Below, piece after piece: positions 6,420-39,364 of a stretch of DNA of 64,000 bases. A model generated the notes under the pieces. That model was not told the DNA's origin and made no database searches. It saw only the letters and a program-made list of their open reading frames with translations. Origin of the DNA: Dictyostelium discoideum (Eukaryota); the NCBI GenBank assembly GCA_000004695.1, contig CM000150.2:1088001-1152000 (forward strand). The letters are read 5' to 3'. The translations under genes and the position numbers were made by a program. Position 1 is the first letter of the stretch, and each line of letters begins with the position of its first letter.

Positions 6420-7712
6420 TTTTTTAATTTATATTTACAAAAAATAATATAATATTTTGGTTGTTTTTTTTTTTTTTTTTTTATAATTATTAAGAATTAT
6501 ATTAATAAAATAATAACATTAATTTAATATAAATAAAAATTGAACCTATTTATATAAAAAAAATAATAAAAAAAATAAAAAAAAAAATAAAAATAAATAT
6601 ATTTAAATAAATTTAATTTATATTTTACAATTTTACAGTGGGGTAACATAAGTTGTAACATTAATTTCAATGATAATAATTTAGTGGTTGTAAATTTGGA
6701 GTGCTCAGCAGTATGAATTTTTTTTTTTTTGTTATTGCTATTTGATATCAAGTACAAGTGTGGTAAAATGAGTTTTTTTTTTTTCTTGATTTTACAATAA
6801 AATTAAATTATTTTTATTATTTGTAAAAAAATAAAAAATGATACCATCATAGCATAATATATTATTTTTGTTTTTTTATTATAATTTTTTTTTTCCCAAA
6901 CCTATTTAAAGTTGTACAAAAATTAAAATTTTTGCCTTGTTGCTCAATTTATGATTTGAAATTTTTTGGTCATTCAATGAATAAAATGAATAAATTTATT
7001 ATTATTTGTTTTTTTATATTTTTTATTTTTTATTTTTACCTTCGGGTAAATTATGAAATGGGTGTATTTATAAATTAAATTATGAATGATAGCTTAAATA
7101 AAAATACTACCAACTTACAAAACTATAATTATAATTACCACACCACTGGATAGTATCAATTACAAGAATAAAAAAAATTAAATAAAACGTTAAAATAAAA
7201 AATTAATTTTCTATTTTATTATTTTTTTTTTTTATGTTTTCACATCCATATTATTATAAATTAATTTTAACCTCTCTAAAAATGCGAAATTAAATTAATC
7301 AAAAATAAAAATAAAAAATTAAATAAATAAATAAATTAATAAATAAAAAAATAAATAATAAATAAATAAAATTTAAACAATTTTTATTATTTATTATTTT
7401 TGATCATGATTTTCATACTATTATTATTTCCTATTATTATTATTATTATTATTTTTTTTTTTTTTAGTTTTTCTAATTTTTTTTTCTTTTTTTTAATTTT
7501 CTAAGGACCATTTCTTGCTCTGAGATCCTTTTTTTTTTTTTTCCTTTTTTTTTTTCCTTTTTTTTTTCTTTTTTTTTTTTTCCTTTTTTTTTTTTTTAAT
7601 TTTTATTTTTTTTTATTATCTTAAAGAAAAAAAGAACTTCAAAAAAAAGACCAAGAAAACCAATTGATCTATATTTCTACATTTTTCCTTTTACTTTTTT
7701 TTTTTTTTTTTT

Positions 7713-9335: not shown

Positions 9336-9705
9336 AATTTAAAAATAAAAAAAAAGTTTTAAATTTAAAATAAAGAATAAAATAAATGAATTTTAAAATG
9401 AAAAAAATATGTTAATTATGAAAGTAAAAAAAAAAAAAAAAGAATGTTTTTTTTTTTTTTATTTTTTTTTACCACACAATTATTTTATTTTTTTTTTTTT
9501 TAATTTAATAATTTAACACACAATTTTTTAAATTAATTTTTTTTTTTTTGTATTGTTCAAACAATACAAAAAATCAAAATAATTTTTTTTTTTTTTTTTT
9601 TACCAATTAAAGAAACTTTGGATATTTTTATTTTTTTTCAACACCTCCAATTAAATTAATACAAAATCAAATAGCCAGGGCCAGTTTTAAAAAAATAACA
9701 ATAAT

Positions 9706-10010
<305 letters not shown>

Positions 10011-10203
10011 AATAATAAAAAAATAAAAAAAAAAAAATTTTAAGGAATGAAATTAAGAATAAATAGAAAATTTAAAAATACAATAAATAAAAAAATTTAA
10101 TTTTTTTTTTTTTTTTTTTTTTTTTTTTGTTTAAAACTTTGGGTGTTCAGCATTGTAAAGACTCTTGTGTAATACCAATGATAATCAGAGTTTAAGTCTT
10201 TTT

Positions 10204-10235
<32 letters not shown>

Positions 10236-10417
10236 TTTTTTTCTTTTTCTTTATCCATTAAGAATCAATATTTCTAATAAAAAAAAAAAAAAAAAAAAAA
10301 TAAAAACCATTCCATCAAAGGACCCAAATTAATAATCGTTATCGTGATAAAAACAAATTTATTTTTATAAAAAATTAAAAAAAATAAAATTTTTGGGTGA
10401 TTTTTTTTAATTTTTAT

Positions 10418-10468
<51 letters not shown>

Positions 10469-10596
10469 CAACATGCTGCGAGTGAACCCATCACATATAT
10501 TTTTTTTATTTTAACAATATATAATTATTAGAATTCAATAACAATAAAAATAAAAGAAAAACTCTCACATAAAACAAAATCGATTTTTTTTTTTCA

Positions 10597-10629
<33 letters not shown>

Positions 10630-10678
10630 ACTTATAAAATAGATAAAAAAAAAATAAAAAAAAAAAAAATAAAAAGGA

Positions 10679-10784
10679 TTGGATGTATCTAAAAGATACT
10701 CCATTATTTCAAATAGAAAATCTTTTATTGAAGATGGTTTCACAGTTACCGTAAGTAGAATTCTTTTCACCCACCCCTTTTCTG

Positions 10785-10815
<31 letters not shown>

Positions 10816-11464
10816 CTTTTTTTTTTTTTTTTACCTTTTTTTTTATTTATGTTTATTAATAGTTTTTTTTTTTTTTATTTTTTTTTTTTTTTTATATTTT
10901 TTTTAATTTTAAAAAGATAACATTAAAAGGTATAGTTCAAAAAGTATCATTTCAAAGTTCGGTTACAGTTGATCACGTAAAATTTGAAATTTTAAAACAA
11001 TTTTATCCATCTAGTGACCAAAGCTATGAATTTTTTTTAGCGATTAATAAAACAGAGATATTACAAATCGAATTTGTTAGATTTATATTTGCACATGAAG
11101 CAATTCAAAAATCATTATTAATTAAAAAATCAATTGAAGTTTATTTAATACCAAAATCAAAAGAAATCATTGCAAGAAAATGTAAAGCTGATATAATTAA
11201 AAAGCAATTAGGAACTTATGTTGGGGTTAAACAAACTCCTTTACCAACATTAAATAGTAAACCACCACCATCTGTACCTCCAAGAAAAACAAATTCACAA
11301 ACAAATATACAAAAAGTATTAACTAATAATAATAATAATAATAGTAATAATACTACTAGTAATAATGTTAGTGCATCACCATCTAGTGCATCAACAACAT
11401 CAACAGCTGGTGTTACAATATCAAAATCAACATCAACATCATCATTAGTACTAGCATCACCACC

Positions 11465-11505
<41 letters not shown>

Positions 11506-13497
11506 CCAAAACAGCAGCATCACCATCATCTTCATCGATTTCGCAAGATGGTAGTAGTTTAACTTTATCACAAGAGGATGTATCAACTGAAATTTTGAAA
11601 TTACAATTACAACAACAATTAATGTTATTGGAAGATGAGGAATTAACATACCAATCACTATTGGTTTCAACTGAATCAGATGATGAAGGTGATACAAACA
11701 ATCTTTTAAGTATTGGTAGTGGGGGTGAAAAAACAGCTGTTGAATTGGATTCAATATTTTCATTAAGTCCACAATCAGCAACATCACCACCATTATCACC
11801 ACCATCACCAAATCCAACAAGAACTAAACCAGCTGTACCACCACGTTCATTTAATTCACTAGATGAGAATGAAACCTTAACATTTAAAAAAGAACCAATT
11901 CTACCAAAATCATCAAATGAATCATTGTTAGGTTCAGTACCAAATGAACAAAAAAATGATAAATCACCTTTAAAATCAACTGAACCAACAACAATATCAA
12001 CTGTACAACAACCAATTGTTCAACAACAACCAATTGTTCAACAACAACCAATTGTTCAACAACAATTACAACAACAACAACAACAACAACTGCAACAGCA
12101 AGAAGTTATGGAACCACAACATTGGTCAAATTATTTATCAATGAAACCATTAAAACAAACCTTAAATGTATGTATTAATTCTAGTTGTTTATTAATTATT
12201 TATATAAATATCATATTAATACTCTTTATATATTTTATTTTAGGAAATACCAATTCAAGTTCAAGTTAAAGATAATTATTTTATAATGGGATGTAATAAA
12301 AATTTTACATCAAGTGAATTTAAATCATATTTAGTATCAAATTTAGAGAGTATGATTCAAGCGATTAAAGTTGGTACATTTGCAACCAATGATATATCAT
12401 CTGAAACCATTGCATTTAAAAAGAATGCTGTAATTTGTGATTTATTCACAGATAGTATTCAACAAAGACCAACATCAATACCGAGTTTAATTGTATTAAA
12501 ACCTGGTATGCAAGATTTATTCAAAGGTAATAGTCGTGCATTTATTGGTTCACCAATTGTAAATAGTAATAATAATGTTAATAATAATATAAATAATAGT
12601 AATAGTAATAGTAATAATAATAATATAAATAATAGTTTAGATGGTTTTAAATTATCAACATCACTACAAACACCATCAGTAAATTTAAGTTTATTACATA
12701 ATAATATTCAAAATTTAATATCAAATAATGGTAATAGTGGTCCTAGTAGTATTAATAGTAGTTGTAGTAGTAGTAGTAGTAACAATGGTAATACGACAAA
12801 TTATAGTAGTAGTATTGGTAATGAATATAAACAACCAATATCAGGATCATTGATATTTAATAATAATAAAACATTGGGTAGAAATGCAAACTTTTCATTA
12901 GGAGAACAAAGAGATAATAATGCAAAATTAAGACAACAGAAAAAGAAATTAACTGCCATTCAAATTAGTTCATTATTAGGTGAACCATTGAATTGGAGTA
13001 ATACAGAGAATGAAATTAAATACTTTAGAAATTTAGCAGAACAAATCTTTGATTTTCAAACATTGGATGAAAGAGATCGTGTTAAAATTACAATTGCACC
13101 TGTAACCAATGCTCATCCAGATCCATTATTACCAAGTACTTTTAGAGTTAGGTTTTATTTACCACCAGATAATCATTCAACTACAATCAATGTAATGTCT
13201 TCTGATACAGTTACAAATTTAATTGAAAAGGTTATAGCCAAACATAATAACAGTACAAAATTAATTTCATCTGATCATACACCTTCTGATTATGTAATTC
13301 GTATCACTGGTACATCTGATCATGTTTTAAAAACTGATGAATTGGTTACAAATTTAATTGTAGTTAGAAATCGTTTACAACGTAAAAAAGATATTAAATT
13401 TAGCTTGGTACATAAAACTTCATTACCAAAAATTTATATTGATGGTCATTCACCTGAAATTTGTACATTAAAAAACAATAATAATAATAATAATATA

Positions 13498-30578: not shown

Positions 30579-33104
<2,526 letters not shown>

Positions 33105-33190
33105 ATTCAATTTATTAATATAAAAAAAAAAAAAAAAATAATCAAAATAAAATAATAATAAAAAATTAATTTAAATTATAACACAATAAT

Positions 33191-33221
<31 letters not shown>

Positions 33222-33612
33222 ATTGCAGTGTACATTAAAAAAAAAAAAAAAACTTTAACTATAATAAATAAACATTTAATTATGTGATAAATATCACATA
33301 CACTTTTTAAATCAATAATTTATTTTATTATTTATTCAATTTTTAAATTTTCTAAACAAACACCACGCCCAATAAATCATATCAACTTCCATTTAATTAA
33401 ATTAAAATAAAAAAAATTAATAAATAAAATAAAATAAATAATTAAGAAAATAATATTAATATTAAAATTAATATTTTATTGTATTAAAAACTTTAAAAAG
33501 AAATCTTATAGTTTTTGTTGAAATTTATTTATTCATCTGATCTTAAAGATATTATTTCAGAATTATCATAAAGATTAATTGTATCTTTATTTTTTAAATA
33601 AAAAGAATAAAA

Positions 33613-33735
33613 TTGATTGGAACAATAATCATTAAAAAATGGTTCGATGACTCTTATGAACATATAATGGGCGATAAAGGCTTTCAAGGATCCGATAAAT
33701 TATATTTTAAATTTATAGTAATTTCGAGAAAAAAC

Positions 33736-33776
<41 letters not shown>

Positions 33777-34038
33777 TAATGATGGTGATATAAATGGAGA
33801 ATGTTTTGAACCAGAATATTATGTAAGCGATGAAAAAGAATCAGATGCAAGGTTTAAATCGATTAGAATAATAATTGAAAATGTTTTTGCTCACATTAAA
33901 AAATATTCAATTACCTGTCTCACTTTTAGATTTAAGAATAAGATTGAATCAACAACTTTATTGGACTATCATCATAAAATTTGGTGTGTTGTTGCATTTT
34001 TGGTTAACTTGTATGTTGAAATTAGAAAGAAAGAATAA
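33613..34038 (+). mobile_element. 5'-truncated PIF/Harbinger-like (DDE_Tnp_4) transposase relic, C-terminal ~125 aa only
   Basis: The listed 'M' is TTG; the first ATG is at EHIMGDKGF. Motifs: GDKGFQGS (second-Asp region, cf. GDSGYP); E..ARFKSIRIIIENVFAHIKKYSITCLTFRFKN (cf. N..H..R..IERTFGLLK.RFRCL with the catalytic E); KIWCVVAFLVNLYV (cf. C..LHN). No upstream catalytic D or N-terminal domain is present. Confidence 0.45.
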
Positions 34039-34121
34039 ACTCTCATATTAATTTAATATGAAAACAATTTCGACAAAAAAAACATTTTCATTTCACAAAA
34101 AAAAACTTTTTTTTCTGAAAA

Positions 34122-34340
34122 TATTATCATTATTTATTATTTTAAATCTATTATCAAATAAATTATTATATATATTTTTTTTTTTTTTTTTTTGGTGTTT
34201 TGAAGATATTTTTATTTTTCGATAAACAGTTTTTTAAATTTTTTTTTCTAAGTTACTTTTTTTAAGATTGGCATTTTTTGGTGTTTTGAAGATATTTTTA
34301 TTTTTTTCGATAATCAGTTTTTTAAATTTTTTTTTCTTTT
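34122..34340. repeat. Direct repeat R1, internally duplicated ~75-bp unit; left flank of the lectin-gene island
   Basis: ttattttaaatctattatcaaataaattat... and (ttggtgttttgaagatatttttatttttcgataa(a/t)cagttttttaaatttttttttct)x2. The same sequence recurs at 36958..37075. Confidence 0.6.
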
Positions 34341-34623
34341 TTTTTTTTTTATTTTAAATATTCACACTTTCACCAATTAAAACACAAACCCTAAAAAATG
34401 CAATGAGTGAAAGATAACACTCCATTTTGACACCTGTGTTGGTGTTGACTTGAACAAAGATCTAAACCATGGGTTAAAAAAAAAAAAAAAATAAAAATAA
34501 TAGACTTAAAAAAAATATAAATACTTTAAAACTTTTTTTTTTTTTTCATTCTCAAAAATAAATTAAATAACTTTTAAAACAAAAAATTTAAATAAATAAA
34601 ATAAAAAAATTAAAAATAAAGAA

Positions 34624-35895
34624 ATGATAAATATTGAAGATATTTCAAAATCTTCAAATGAAAGTGAAGAAAAACAATTAAAAAGTACAAGTACAAGTTC
34701 AAAACCAAAATACCCATTCGCAGCAAAAAGCTTATTCAAAGGTTCAAATAATATTATACCATATTATTTATCAACCAGTAATACATTCCAATGTGTAGCA
34801 TCTGAGTCAATTCAAACATGGCTTCTTTCAGATGATGGTCATATCTTTACATCCAGTGGTAATTTTGTTTTAGATGTTTCATCAGGTGGTTATTTTGTTG
34901 AATTAGTACAACTTAATTCAAATTCAAAAACTCAAATTTGGACAATTGATACAACAAATAATAAAATTCAAAACCAAGGTAATGGTAAATACCTTGATAT
35001 CGACAATTTGAATATTTGTGTTGCACCTTTAAATGGAAACGCAACTCAAAAATGGACAACTTTTAGAAGAGCACCAATTCCAACTGGTAATTGGGGTTAC
35101 TTTCAAAGCAAAAAATTGGATTCCAATAATAATTATTGGGGTCTAAGTGTATTAAATAATAGTACATCATATAATACTAGTGTAGTAATGAATAAAGTTC
35201 AAGCAAAATCAATAGGTCAAATTTGGCAAATGACAAACGATGGTCACATTTTATCACGTTTGGATGGTAATTTAGTATTAGATATTGGTCCATCAATTAA
35301 TGGTAGTAAAACAAACTATTATTTAAATACCAATGTTTACAAAGCAAATGATCTAATGCAACAATGGGGTATCAACGAAAATAATCAAATATTCAATCAA
35401 TATTATCCAAATTTATGTATTGGATTCGTTGGCGAACTTGGAGTTGATTCAACTGTTAATTGTGTATTAGCTCAACCAACTAGTGCTAGTGATATTAATT
35501 TCCAATGGATTGCAAATCCAACCTATTCATTAAACCAAATTGTTAGTGAAGTACCAGAACCATTTCCAGCTTACACAAGTGGTGATTTATTAGCATCATA
35601 TCAATACCTTAGTAATGATGCAACAAATGGTTATACTGATGATATTAGATCACTTTATACAAGTATTAATGTTAGTTTAGAACATTTCTATGTTAATGTC
35701 TCCAATGCAACTTGTCCATCATCAATTCATTCAACTGAAGATTTTTCAAATGTTCAAAATCAAATCAAAAATGAACTCACCTACGCAATCAATGTCCGTT
35801 TAGTATTTGATAACTATTCCGATTTTTATAGTAAATTATTTAGTCAAGGTAGTACAAATTTAACAAACTTGGCAAATTTAATTAATGTCATCTGA
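34624..35895 (+). CDS. Ricin-B (beta-trefoil, QxW) lectin-domain protein, N-terminal 423-aa part of a Cup-like (calcium-upregulated family) gene
   Basis: ATG at 34624 in an A-rich context. Repeated QxW motifs TQIWTI, TQKWTT, GQIWQM and MQQWGI, with hydrophobic spacing typical of tandem ricin-B beta-trefoil subdomains. Ends at TGA 35893..35895 exactly at a 19-bp tandem duplication. Confidence 0.6.
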
Positions 35896-35900
35896 CCAAG

Positions 35901-36950
35901 TTGTTGTCATCTGACCAAGTTGTAAATGGAAATTACACCGATGCAATTACCAGTGTTTTTTATGCAATTATTTCAGAGATACCAATTGGTGGTTCAATAA
36001 TTGCAAACATTGGTGAGTCAGCAGTAGAATTTGGTGAATTAGATGCTGAAAGTAATGATTCAGGCCCATCAACCTATCAAGTTACATTAAGTAAACTCTA
36101 TGATCATTTAAATGAAAATTATGAAAATGAAATGGCAAATGCCCAAAGAATGAAAAATACCATTTTACAAGATTGGGGTATGATGAGTAAAACCTTTGCA
36201 TTATGTTTCTTACCAACCAATAATCCATCCTCACTCAATATCAATGGATTAGACTTTCAAAAAATTTCTACCATAGCTTCTATAGCTTACCAAACTGCAA
36301 TGATTCAAATGTTATTACCAACTAATTATCAAATTTACTTTACACCAGCTGGTTACTATGCACCAGTTTCAAGTGATGATTACTCTTATACTGATAGTAC
36401 TGGAACCTATATTATGGCGGAAATCGATAACTGTAACTCTCATCCTCCAAAAGCTTTAACCGATAAGTTATGGAATAATGGAGTTTCAAAACAAGAAGTT
36501 TTCACATCTTCCTATGGTTGGAATTTAGCTACCTCTGTGACCTATTACAATATGGTCGGTAGATATGGTGGAATGTTTAAATTATCTTTCCCAACTGTAA
36601 AGAATTTAACATCAGTACCAATTCAATTCGTAATGACCAATGGAAGGGATAGAGTTGGTACTTTCAATGTTAAAACTCATTTTACTGGATTAGCCTCAAC
36701 ATATTACAATTCAGGTGCCCTTGGTCATCATTATTACGATATTGCTGTAACTGATATTAACGGTAACAAGGTTGCAAATTTCACAGTTGACAATAATTTG
36801 GTAGCTCTTGAAGGTAGTTATGTTTCAATCAAAACTAATTCATTAGTTGTTCAACCAGGTTATGTTGTTGGTAATCCAACTTGTAATCAAGGTGGTTTTT
36901 CTCAAGGATTTGCTGCTTCAATTTTAATTCCAATTTATAAATCAAATTAA
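35901..36950 (+). CDS. Probable C-terminal continuation of the same lectin gene in the +2 frame (349 aa); the gene may be frame-disrupted
   Basis: Open frame from TAA 35883..35885 onward; the listed 'M' is TTG and the first ATG is about 60 codons in. Coding-like composition throughout, beta-rich C-terminus. Combined length of about 775 aa matches the Cup-protein size (two ricin domains plus a conserved C-region). Confidence 0.45.
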
Positions 36951-36957
36951 AAAAATC

Positions 36958-37075
36958 GATTTTAATTATTTATTATTTTAAATCTATTATCAAATAAATT
37001 ATATATTTTTTTTTTTCGATAGTTTTATTTTTTTCGATAATCAGTTTTTTAAATTTTTTTTTCTAAGATACTGTT
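36958..37075. repeat. Direct repeat R2, copy of R1 with an internal deletion; right flank of the lectin-gene island
   Basis: ttattttaaatctattatcaaataaattatatattttttt...tttttcgataatcagttttttaaatttttttttctaag matches 34131-34180 and 34300-34340. Confidence 0.6.
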
Positions 37076-38338
37076 ATCTGGTTATCTGAAAAATTAATTT
37101 CTTGATTTGAAATATTACCTTTAATTTTAGATTTGAATTTAATTAATTGATCAAAGAATAAATCGATTCTATTAATATCTAAAAAAAATATTAAATGCTC
37201 ATTTAAAATTTCTAATTTATTACCTCTTTAACTTTTTTCCAATACTTTATAGAGTGATTCAACTGAAGTTTCATCTTCAAAGATTTTTTCAATTGAAATT
37301 TTAAAATTGAAAAATTGATCTTCATCTTCATCCAATTCACCATATACTTCATTAAAATATTTTTAAGATATATAGATTTCATTGACAAGTATTCATATTG
37401 ATTATAGGTTGAATCCAAATCTATAAAAAACTGTTTACCCCCACTATTGGCTTCTTCAATTAAATCATAAGCTTCACAAATCCATTCAAATATATCACAT
37501 TCTTTTAAATATAATTCATAAAGACCTTCTATTAACTTTTGAAATACATTTGCAAACCTTGATTCTGATCGAATATTATCAAAAAAAAATATTTAAAATT
37601 AATGAATTTAATTCAAGTATTGAATGATAGAATGTAGAAAACAAAATTGGTAGAAATCTTTCTTCTAAATTTTCAGTTGAAATTACAAATTCTTGAATAT
37701 AATCATTATAACCAAACTTTATAGAAATTATGAAACAATTTTATCTCAAGTTGAAATTATATTTAAAAATAATTCAAAAGAATCCATTTTAGAATTCATT
37801 AAATATTATTCATCAAAAGATGTATATGAATTAATTGGTAATTTATATTGTGATCATATGGTTATAATGTTTTATATTCTCTATTCATCAGATACTAAAG
37901 ATCAATATTTAGAATTTTTAAATTCAATTAATCCATATTGTTGTTCATCATCGTCACCAGCATGGTCATCATCAATTGATTCAAAACAAAATGAAAATGG
38001 TTCTGATGAAAATGGTGCAGATGAAAAAAGAGAAAAATATTTACATATTCAATCAATTAAATGTTATTTTCCACTTGAATGGAATTTATTTTTAAATAAT
38101 ATTAAATCATATTCTCCATTTAATAAAGTATTATTATTAACTATTTTTAAAATGTTTTCAATCTTTTCTTTTAATATTAAAAAATCTTTATTTATTGAAT
38201 TTCCTTTTTTTAAATATTTCAATGTTAAATTCATTTTCTAAAAACTTTAAATTAAATAATCTTTTTTTAATTTCAAATGATTCAATTTCAAAGAATTTAT
38301 TAATTTCAATTTTTGAAACATTTATATAACCATCTGAT

Positions 38339-38458
38339 TTTGTATTGGTATTGGTATTGGTATTGGTATTTGTATTTGTATTGGTATTTGTATTGGTATT
38401 GGTATTGGTATTGGTATTGGTGGTGGTATTGGTGGTGGTATTGGTATTGGTGGTATTA
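38339..38458. repeat. (GGTATT)n hexanucleotide microsatellite
   Basis: ggtattggtattggtatt... gives the spurious WYWYWY ORF 38313..38528. Confidence 0.85.
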
Positions 38459-39364
38459 TAAAGTTTTGGATTATCTAAAATTAATTCTAATAACTCTACA
38501 TTACAACGATAATTATTATAAACTGTAATTGAAATAATTTTATTTTTTAACTCAACTCAATTGAACTCATTATTTCTTTGGTGAAATTTTAATTGGTTTT
38601 GAAATTAATTTTAAGAAAGCTAAAAAAAAATAAAAAAATAAAAAAACAAATAAAAAAAATTAAATAAAAAAAAATAGAATACTAATATAAACATTAATTT
38701 TAATTAAACCCAACCAGATTTTTTTATTTGTTTTTGTTTTTATTTTTATTTTTTTTTTTATTTTTTTTTATTTTTTTTTGTTTTTTTTTTTTTTGTTTTT
38801 TTTTTTTTTTTTTTTTTTTTGAAAAGTATTTTTAATTGGATATTATTTGAAAAATATTTTTAAACTGGGGGTGTGTTGGTGTTTAATTTTTCTGTTTAAT
38901 TTTTTTGTTTTTTTTTTCTTCATTATTAAACAAAAAAAAAAAAAAAATAAAAACAATTTAACAAAAAAAACAAAATAAAAATAACTTTTTTTGAATTTGA
39001 CACTTTTGGTGTGAAAAGGATTAAAAAAGATTACGGAGTGGATTATTAAAATATTACAAAAAAAAAAATTTTTTAATGACAATAGTAATTTATGTTTTAA
39101 TATAATTTCGGTAAATAAAAAAAATAAAATAAAAAAAAAAACAAAAAAACAAAAAAAAATAAATAAAAAAATAAAATATATGTATAATAAAAAGTAATAA
39201 ATAAAATAAATAAAATAAATAAAATAAAAAAATAAAAATAATATGTTTAAGGTGATTGATCAAAAATTTTAAAAGAAAAAAAAAAGAAAATTTAAAAATA
39301 ATTTTTTTTTGAAAATTTGAAAAGGCAAAAGGGCCAAAAGATTTTTTGAATATTTGCATTTCCG

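Follow-up and report, generated by a model that had tools for sequence, protein, structure and literature searches.

A 3,440-bp lineage-specific insertion joins a transposon relic to the lectin gene cupA in Dictyostelium discoideum, probably by way of break repair

How did a solitary lectin gene come to lie between two direct repeats, beside a broken transposase gene, on chromosome 1 of Dictyostelium discoideum AX4? The locus is part of a stretch of 64,000 nucleotides (GenBank assembly GCA_000004695.1, contig CM000150.2, positions 1,088,001 to 1,152,000 of the forward strand), here called the window, which is AT-rich throughout. In a sequence-only reading, positions 33613-37075 had been described as an accessory island with a Harbinger-like transposase fragment and a lectin gene pair bracketed by the repeats R1 and R2, and capture of the gene by the transposon had been the favoured explanation. 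According to our comparison with related loci, the island is one insertion that replaced part of a host gene, and the gene within it is cupA, a member of the cup (calcium up-regulated protein) family. We posit that the block was probably installed by double-strand-break repair using ectopic DNA, and not by transposition.

The empty site is found in a divergent isolate labelled D. discoideum (L010), whose flanks are 93-95% identical to the window. There, the counterparts of window 33509-33644 and 37082-37562 are neighbours with 45 bp (ATTTAAATGAATTTTCATCTAAAACTTTTAATGTTGTAATAAAAAC) between them that are absent from the window, the order being AAAAAATG (ending at window 33641), the 45 bp, and then TTATCTGAAAA (from 37082). 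Because these flanks adjoin across 45 bp, 33642-37081 is one lineage-specific insertion of 3,440 bp that was accompanied by the loss of 45 host bp. In L010 the block is absent and an intact, intronless minus-strand gene of 1134 amino acids (aa) fills the gap; since its open reading frame (ORF) is intact, the L010 state appears to be the ancestral one. The same locus in another assembly (L008) is 99.7% identical to the window and has the block. In D. citrinum (L009 8068-8576), only 508 bp separate GLE1 from the upstream region of a P-type ATPase gene, and the whole of 33192-38925 is missing. The term accessory island is thus justified by two genomes, in which either the block or the entire interval is absent.

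The limits of the block, the origins of its components and the sequences at its junctions can be read directly from the alignments. It consists of a 485-bp transposon tail up to the terminal inverted repeat (TIR) plus TCA, followed by 1.04 cup units (R1, cupA, a short 3' flank and R2). In the following list, L007 is the locus of a related element, and X is the position in the cup upstream region, equivalent to window 34129/34130, at which the cup homology of the window starts.

33642..34126, plus strand: transposon tail, the 3' 485 bp of a PIF/Harbinger-like element, with the stop of the transposase ORF at 34038
34052..34126, plus strand: right TIR, reverse complement of the L007 left end 9345-9421 (90%), with a single occurrence in the window
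34127..34129, no strand: TCA between transposon terminus and cup sequence, probably the target-site copy of a 3-bp target duplication
34129..34345, plus strand: R1, the conserved cup upstream module with block A and then two 88-bp units, within the cupA 5' region 34130-34623
34624..36950, plus strand: cupA, a full-length cup gene with a frameshift, whose annotated product is the 423-aa ORF 34624-35895
35893..35903, plus strand: frameshift, a net 11-bp insertion in which a 19-bp tandem duplication (GTCATCTGACCAAGTTGTT) stands in place of 8 bp, from alignment with three paralogs
36965..37075, plus strand: R2, a partial second copy of the module, equal to R1 34129-34256 minus deletions of 5 bp and 18 bp in a gapped alignment
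37076..37081, no strand: ATCTGG, either filler or the last diverged bases of R2, within an 8-bp tandem (GTTATCTG GTTATCTG), from alignment with L010
33641/33642, no strand: junction J1, host antisense sequence runs into the middle of the transposase ORF, no repeat being present
34126 plus TCA, then 34130, no strand: junction J2, transposon terminus meets cup upstream position X
36959..36965, plus strand: junction J3, cup 3' flank meets position X, with ATTTTAA microhomology
37075-37082, no strand: junction J4, cup upstream sequence and host sequence, separated by ATCTGG

The fragment upstream of R1 is, as had been proposed, a 5'-truncated DDE_Tnp_4-type transposase. ORF 33613-34035 scored 31.2 bits against PF13359 (cutoff 24.8; E=2e-7), and the match spans profile positions 74-158 of 158, which is the C-terminal half only, including the motifs GDKGF and IIIENVFAHIKK. 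The transposon-derived part begins at 33642, the first 29 bases of this ORF (33613-33641) being antisense host-gene sequence. The catalytic D-D-E triad is incomplete, as the relic begins past the second D and its sole remaining residue is the E of IIIENVF. Because both catalytic aspartates are missing, the relic is dead. The N-terminal helix-turn-helix domain HTH_Tnp_4 is likewise missing from this copy owing to the truncation. Between window 33675-34127 and L007 10047-10581, DNA identity is 87-91%, and the similarity to the transposon stops at 34126-34129. A poly-Asn-coding (AAT)n run is expanded inside the relic (~33730-33783) and is much longer in L007 (10110-10235). No left partner of the TIR at 34052-34126 was found in the 64-kb window, and neither was the TIR of the other subfamily of these elements.

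The gene in the block is already known. ORF 34624-35895 is residue-for-residue CupA, calcium up-regulated protein A (Q55FW5/XP_647418.1), the match being carried by a 4.92-Mb record, and it belongs to the cup gene family (Coukell et al., 2004, cited in PMC3188802). The 90% cluster of CupA includes the 769-aa paralogs CupB/C/F. Pfam assigned a Ricin_B_lectin domain (PF00652, E=8e-17) to this ORF and matched no domain in the ORF that follows it (35901-36950). These two ORFs, which had been taken for a lectin gene pair, are a single frameshifted cup gene according to the paralog alignment: 34624-36950 is collinear with cupC and two other paralogs, with 98.35% identity to the cupC coding sequence and 96.3% identity to cupC over the whole unit. 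cupA has no uninterrupted ORF of ~769 aa, since the net 11-bp insertion shifts the frame, which explains the 423-aa annotation. The gene is thus predicted to encode a truncated product of 423 aa with its own upstream module retained.

Public annotations of this one sequence are in conflict, as CupA of AX4 is given with 423 aa and the model in the L008 assembly (10001-12327) with 765 aa. The latter spans the same 2,327 bp as window 34624-36950 and, judging from the lengths, apparently treats the frameshift as a 29-bp intron. An in-frame 6-bp tandem duplication (AAGTAC, window 34683-34688) is present in cupA and in none of the three paralogs. Exact look-ups of the relic ORF, the second cupA ORF and three neighbouring ORFs gave no match in the protein collection.

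The nature of R1 and R2 was addressed at three cup loci, namely the cupC locus (L001) and two arrays, of two genes (L002) and of four genes (L003), and with an alignment that covered the upstream and downstream flanks of eight cup genes. The long identical blocks reported for the two repeats are real, with 38 of 38 (34129-34166 and 36965-37002) and 42 of 42 positions (34296-34337 and 37023-37064) being identical. Their core patterns are confined to these sites in the window, and 100 shuffles gave 0 matches. An internal duplication of R1 is also present, in units of 88 bp and not of ~75 bp as first described (34193-34262 against the sequence 88 bp further on, 76% ungapped identity). Because R1 recurs, with its block A, its GGTGTTTTGAAGA motif and its two 88-bp units, at the same position ahead of cupC and of the second L002 cup gene, it is the conserved upstream module of cup genes. 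Across 260 kb of sampled Dictyostelium DNA, three R motifs (A, B and G) occurred at R2 and otherwise only in the ~500 bp that precede cup genes. The repeats are thus neither ubiquitous terminator-like sequences nor the transposon-borne or dispersed repeats as which they had been read, but the upstream module of the cup gene itself. Rfam had no match in 33000-38700.

Homology between the window and the cup paralogs begins at 34122-34130 (X, 34129/34130) and stops ~15 bp past the stop codon, near 36965; among the paralogs themselves, homology continues leftward of X for another ~100 bp. A BLAST extension of cup homology to 37062 in L002 was rejected as low-complexity drift, since the flank alignment ends true homology near 36965. 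R2 covers ~110-130 bp from the start of the cup upstream module, and R2-type sequence after the stop codon was found in no other cup gene examined. The paralogs all read AAAAATCGATTTTAAAATCATT after the stop codon, whereas cupA departs at ATTTTAA (36959-36965) into block A. As the same heptamer also stands before block A upstream of the cup paralogs, J3 is a junction at 7 bp of microhomology.

At the cupC locus, the region ~1.5 kb upstream of cupC (L001 8118-8468) holds a relic of the last 117 cup codons that is 77% identical to CupC and is annotated as fused to a 1370-aa gene. The N-terminus of this 1370-aa gene shows weak similarity to the disrupted host gene of the window, at 41% over 75 aa.

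What was found at the block edges leaves little room for transposition. Comparison with L010 revealed no TIR and no target duplication at the outer edges, where TIRs or 3-bp target-site duplications had been suggested as a check, and the sole TIR (34052-34126) is internal. As the edges are without inverted repeats and target duplication and host bases were lost, the block was probably not placed by transposition. The features by which break repair can be recognised were found, i.e., a precise empty site, lost host bases, and microhomology or filler at the junctions. We infer from them that the 3,440-bp block would have replaced the 45 bp via end joining or via templated synthesis with template switches. 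The cup unit may have been copied for 1.04 unit lengths or re-entered at the 7-bp ATTTTAA, and either course would account for the direct repeats R1 and R2. The 3' end of the transposon plus TCA (...ATTATCA) resembles that of the cup flank (...ATTTTAA), and both could prime at X.

Two orders of events are conceivable, which are as follows: (a) the transposon would have entered the host gene at a TCA within the now-missing 45 bp, a later break beside its right end would have been filled from a cupC-like template, and a deletion would then have removed the left part of the transposon; or (b) the transposon would already have stood just upstream of a cup tandem at a donor locus, from which the 3.4-kb stretch was copied here whole. 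Since the missing 45 bp include a TCA on the right strand, a prior insertion of the element in the host gene is possible. Among the sampled loci, the closest cup template was cupC (96.3%) and the closest transposon copy was 91% identical. The divergence between cupA and cupC (1.7% in the coding sequence, 3.7% over the unit) is smaller than that between the isolates, which fits an insertion after the lineage split. A 218-aa gene beside the L007 element and a 218-aa gene after the cup arrays were considered as a pointer to the donor and dismissed, as there is no similarity between them.

Capture or transduplication of the Pack-MULE (Pack-type) kind would mean that a Harbinger-like element acquired cupA between its two ends and brought it to this place. 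This is consistent with the fact that transposase relic and gene adjoin in one block missing from a related genome. However, the block starts on the left midway through the transposase ORF and ends on the right in cup upstream sequence, its single TIR is internal with no left TIR anywhere in the window, and the edges lack a 3-bp duplication and 45 host bases are gone. Furthermore, cupA lies outside the terminus of the element and not between two termini, so that we consider a capture footprint highly improbable. An origin from a local array is also improbable, if less so. Under this explanation at least two cup genes once stood in situ, and unequal recombination or deletion left 110 bp of the second, for which the tandem arrays of 2-4 copies formed by cup genes and the C-terminal cup relic upstream of cupC provide precedent. 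Yet the neighbouring cup genes in the arrays seen are 1.0-1.7 kb apart and none has J3. The right edge of R2 moreover abuts host sequence that is contiguous in the empty site, so that the deletion would have had to stop exactly at the insertion boundary.

The transposon might also have been causal rather than a bystander, as a special case of break repair, if cleavage at its right end made the break and over-long repair synthesis put both junctions at the same base. Duplications from aberrant Ac/Ds transposition in maize offer a likeness. R1 starts at 34129, right after the terminus and TCA, and R2 starts at the homologous base 36965, a coincidence with a chance of ~1-2% by a rough estimate based on TNA sites in ~500 bp of upstream DNA; the right-strand TCA in the missing 45 bp also marks a place where the element could have inserted. 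On the other hand, the terminus is still joined to its flanking TCA, unlike the prediction for cleavage at the terminus, and microhomology alone can give the same placement. In addition, all transposase copies seen carry frameshifts or deletions. We therefore regard a transposase-triggered duplication as unlikely, though less so than the local array.

Repair of a break with ectopic DNA, which we prefer, also has observations weighing against it. A donor locus with the junction of transposon and cup sequence was not seen among ten Dictyostelium loci, and the genome with the empty site is about 5-7% diverged, with no intermediate states observed. R1 and R2 both start within at most one base of the position of the transposon terminus, a coincidence that is explained by argument alone, namely that the two similar 3' ends could prime at the same place; either it is due to chance, at the roughly estimated 1-2%, or the transposon end took part. 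Finally, the host gene also carries an inversion and several deletions, which indicates an unstable locus in which some junctions may be secondary.

The host gene itself was traced in the window with the L010 protein, and its remains are as follows:

33532..33641, minus strand: left part of the host gene, the 3' end (aa ~1083-1122), from tblastn with the L010 protein and DNA alignment
37082..38553, minus strand: remains of the host gene right of the block, from tblastn of the L010 protein and blastn
37562-37084, minus strand: fragment aa 906-1065, from tblastn with the L010 protein
37716-37582, minus strand: fragment aa 794-838, from tblastn with the L010 protein
37717-38127, plus strand: fragment aa 491-634, inverted, 411 bp, from tblastn with the L010 protein
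38553-38133, minus strand: fragment aa 260-392, from tblastn with the L010 protein

Five fragments thus remain, one of which (aa 491-634) is inverted with respect to the other fragments and to L010. The start-less convergent ORFs noted downstream of R2 are pieces of this broken minus-strand gene. The gene is Dictyostelium-specific and a pseudogene in the window. Accompanying the inversion of 37717-38127, the pseudogene has lost aa 1-259, 393-490, 635-793 and 839-905. A (GGTATT)n microsatellite at 38340-38460 represents a minus-strand Thr-Asn repeat of the pseudogene and has a different length in L010. The D. citrinum interval in L009 has no trace of the host gene, so that the host gene itself, and not just the cupA block, is either restricted to the D. 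discoideum lineage or has been lost from D. citrinum. On the left, window 32100-33101 is the well-conserved C-terminal region of GLE1 with orthologues in L009 and L010. The downstream neighbour is the P-type ATPase, whose protein cluster spans other isolates and species.

In the protein database, the relatives of the relic were four Dictyostelium proteins, and their loci were compared as L004-L007. The elements at L004 6007-7476 and L005 5423-6962 are 1.5 kb long, 96-99% identical and have inverted ends of 57-59 bp, and the L007 element is a closer relative of the window copy. Both TIRs are present in L004, L005 and L007, the TIRs of the family being 57-78 bp long. The conceptual full-length L004 product matched HTH_Tnp_4 (E=5e-10) and DDE_Tnp_4 (E=1e-21), and the L004 element contains an AT-rich intron-like gap. 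At L006 (~6600-6720), the terminal repeat (CGAAACTTCATAATAAAGTCAATTT...) occurs twice in tandem at the right end of a partial element.

PIF/Harbinger elements usually have a second, Myb/SANT-like ORF and a 3-bp TWA target duplication. Three-frame translation of the 1.47-kb and 1.24-kb elements yielded one gene only, with no second Myb/SANT-like ORF. At L004, L005 and L007, TGA stands in direct orientation on either side of the element, and the window copy has TCA on the right only. The TGA flanks (L004 6003-6005/7474-7476, L005, L007 9342-9344/10582-10584) are identical in full elements of both subfamilies. They would be an unusual Harbinger target (TSA, not TWA) in a genome with 78% AT, or alternatively a fixed mismatch in the terminal repeat. 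By its domain, the relic is a member of the PIF/Harbinger/IS5-like DDE_Tnp_4 group with atypical family features.

A full HMMER scan returned 402 relatives, the closest being from D. cf. discoideum, Heterostelium album, Cavenderia fasciculata (several copies) and Polysphondylium violaceum, and relatives were also found in several assemblies of the D. discoideum group. The element family thus occurs in several dictyostelid genera. The superfamily had been called unusual for a social amoeba, which holds only in part: these relatives speak against it, but a review of 2017 still states that none of the DNA-transposon transposases of Dictyostelium resemble known ones (PMC5633606). According to our analysis, D. 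discoideum has recognisable PIF/Harbinger-type elements despite this statement.

A copying event beside a transposon accounts for the origin and the oddities of cupA, which is truncated, solitary and followed by a second promoter fragment. The locus provides a base-pair-resolved example of the spread of a lectin-family gene in Dictyostelium. A bolder, doubtful proposal is that the end of the Harbinger-like transposon provided the break point or the primer when a whole promoter-plus-gene unit was copied from an unlinked cup locus, and that cupA arose in this way; if true, this would be transposon-end-associated gene duplication in a social amoeba. On the same proposal, the element family, with HTH_Tnp_4 and DDE_Tnp_4, a single ORF and TGA/TCA flanks, would be the first D. 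discoideum DNA transposon family placed in a known superfamily besides Ginger/Tdd, possibly corresponding to the unclassified 'thug' elements. cupA itself was already known, and the arrangement is best regarded as a new and well-resolved case of a known process, segmental gene duplication by break repair beside a transposon relic. No major concept is changed by it, and its value is chiefly explanatory, for annotation and for transposon catalogues.

Compared with known systems, the block shares with Pack-MULEs and transduplication that host gene sequence adjoins transposon sequence, but cupA does not lie between TIRs, a target duplication is missing, and the gene is present as a complete unit together with its promoter region. 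cupA matches the cup family exactly and has its ricin-B lectin repeats and its common upstream module. It differs in being solitary on chromosome 1, in its length of 423 aa instead of about 769 aa, and in the partial second upstream module after its stop codon. With PIF/Harbinger and bacterial IS5-like elements, the transposon family has in common HTH_Tnp_4 and DDE_Tnp_4 in related full copies, TIRs and 3-bp direct flanks. In contrast, these elements are only 1.2-1.5 kb long with no room for a second Myb-like ORF, their flanks are TGA (TCA in the window) and not TWA, their TIRs are long (57-78 bp), and the window copy is a 485-bp tail without two catalytic aspartates.

The thug/DDT DNA transposons (Glockner et al., 2001, as summarised in PMC5633606 and PMC4894637) are, by their description, on which this comparison is based, likewise small, TIR-bounded, low-copy elements of D. 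discoideum, and thug-S is reported to be a DNA transposon that contains an intron (PMC4894637), comparable to the intron-like gap of L004. Their transposases are reported to be like no known family (PMC5633606), whereas the present elements match DDE_Tnp_4. The block itself can be set beside templated insertions and microhomology-based repair, e.g., microhomology-mediated end joining, microhomology-mediated break-induced replication and filler at excision sites. Although 3.4 kb is large for filler DNA and the process is known here from sequence alone, the block shares with them the loss of host bases, an internal junction at 7 bp of microhomology, a short tandem duplication at one of its edges, and the origin of its components from two unlinked sources.

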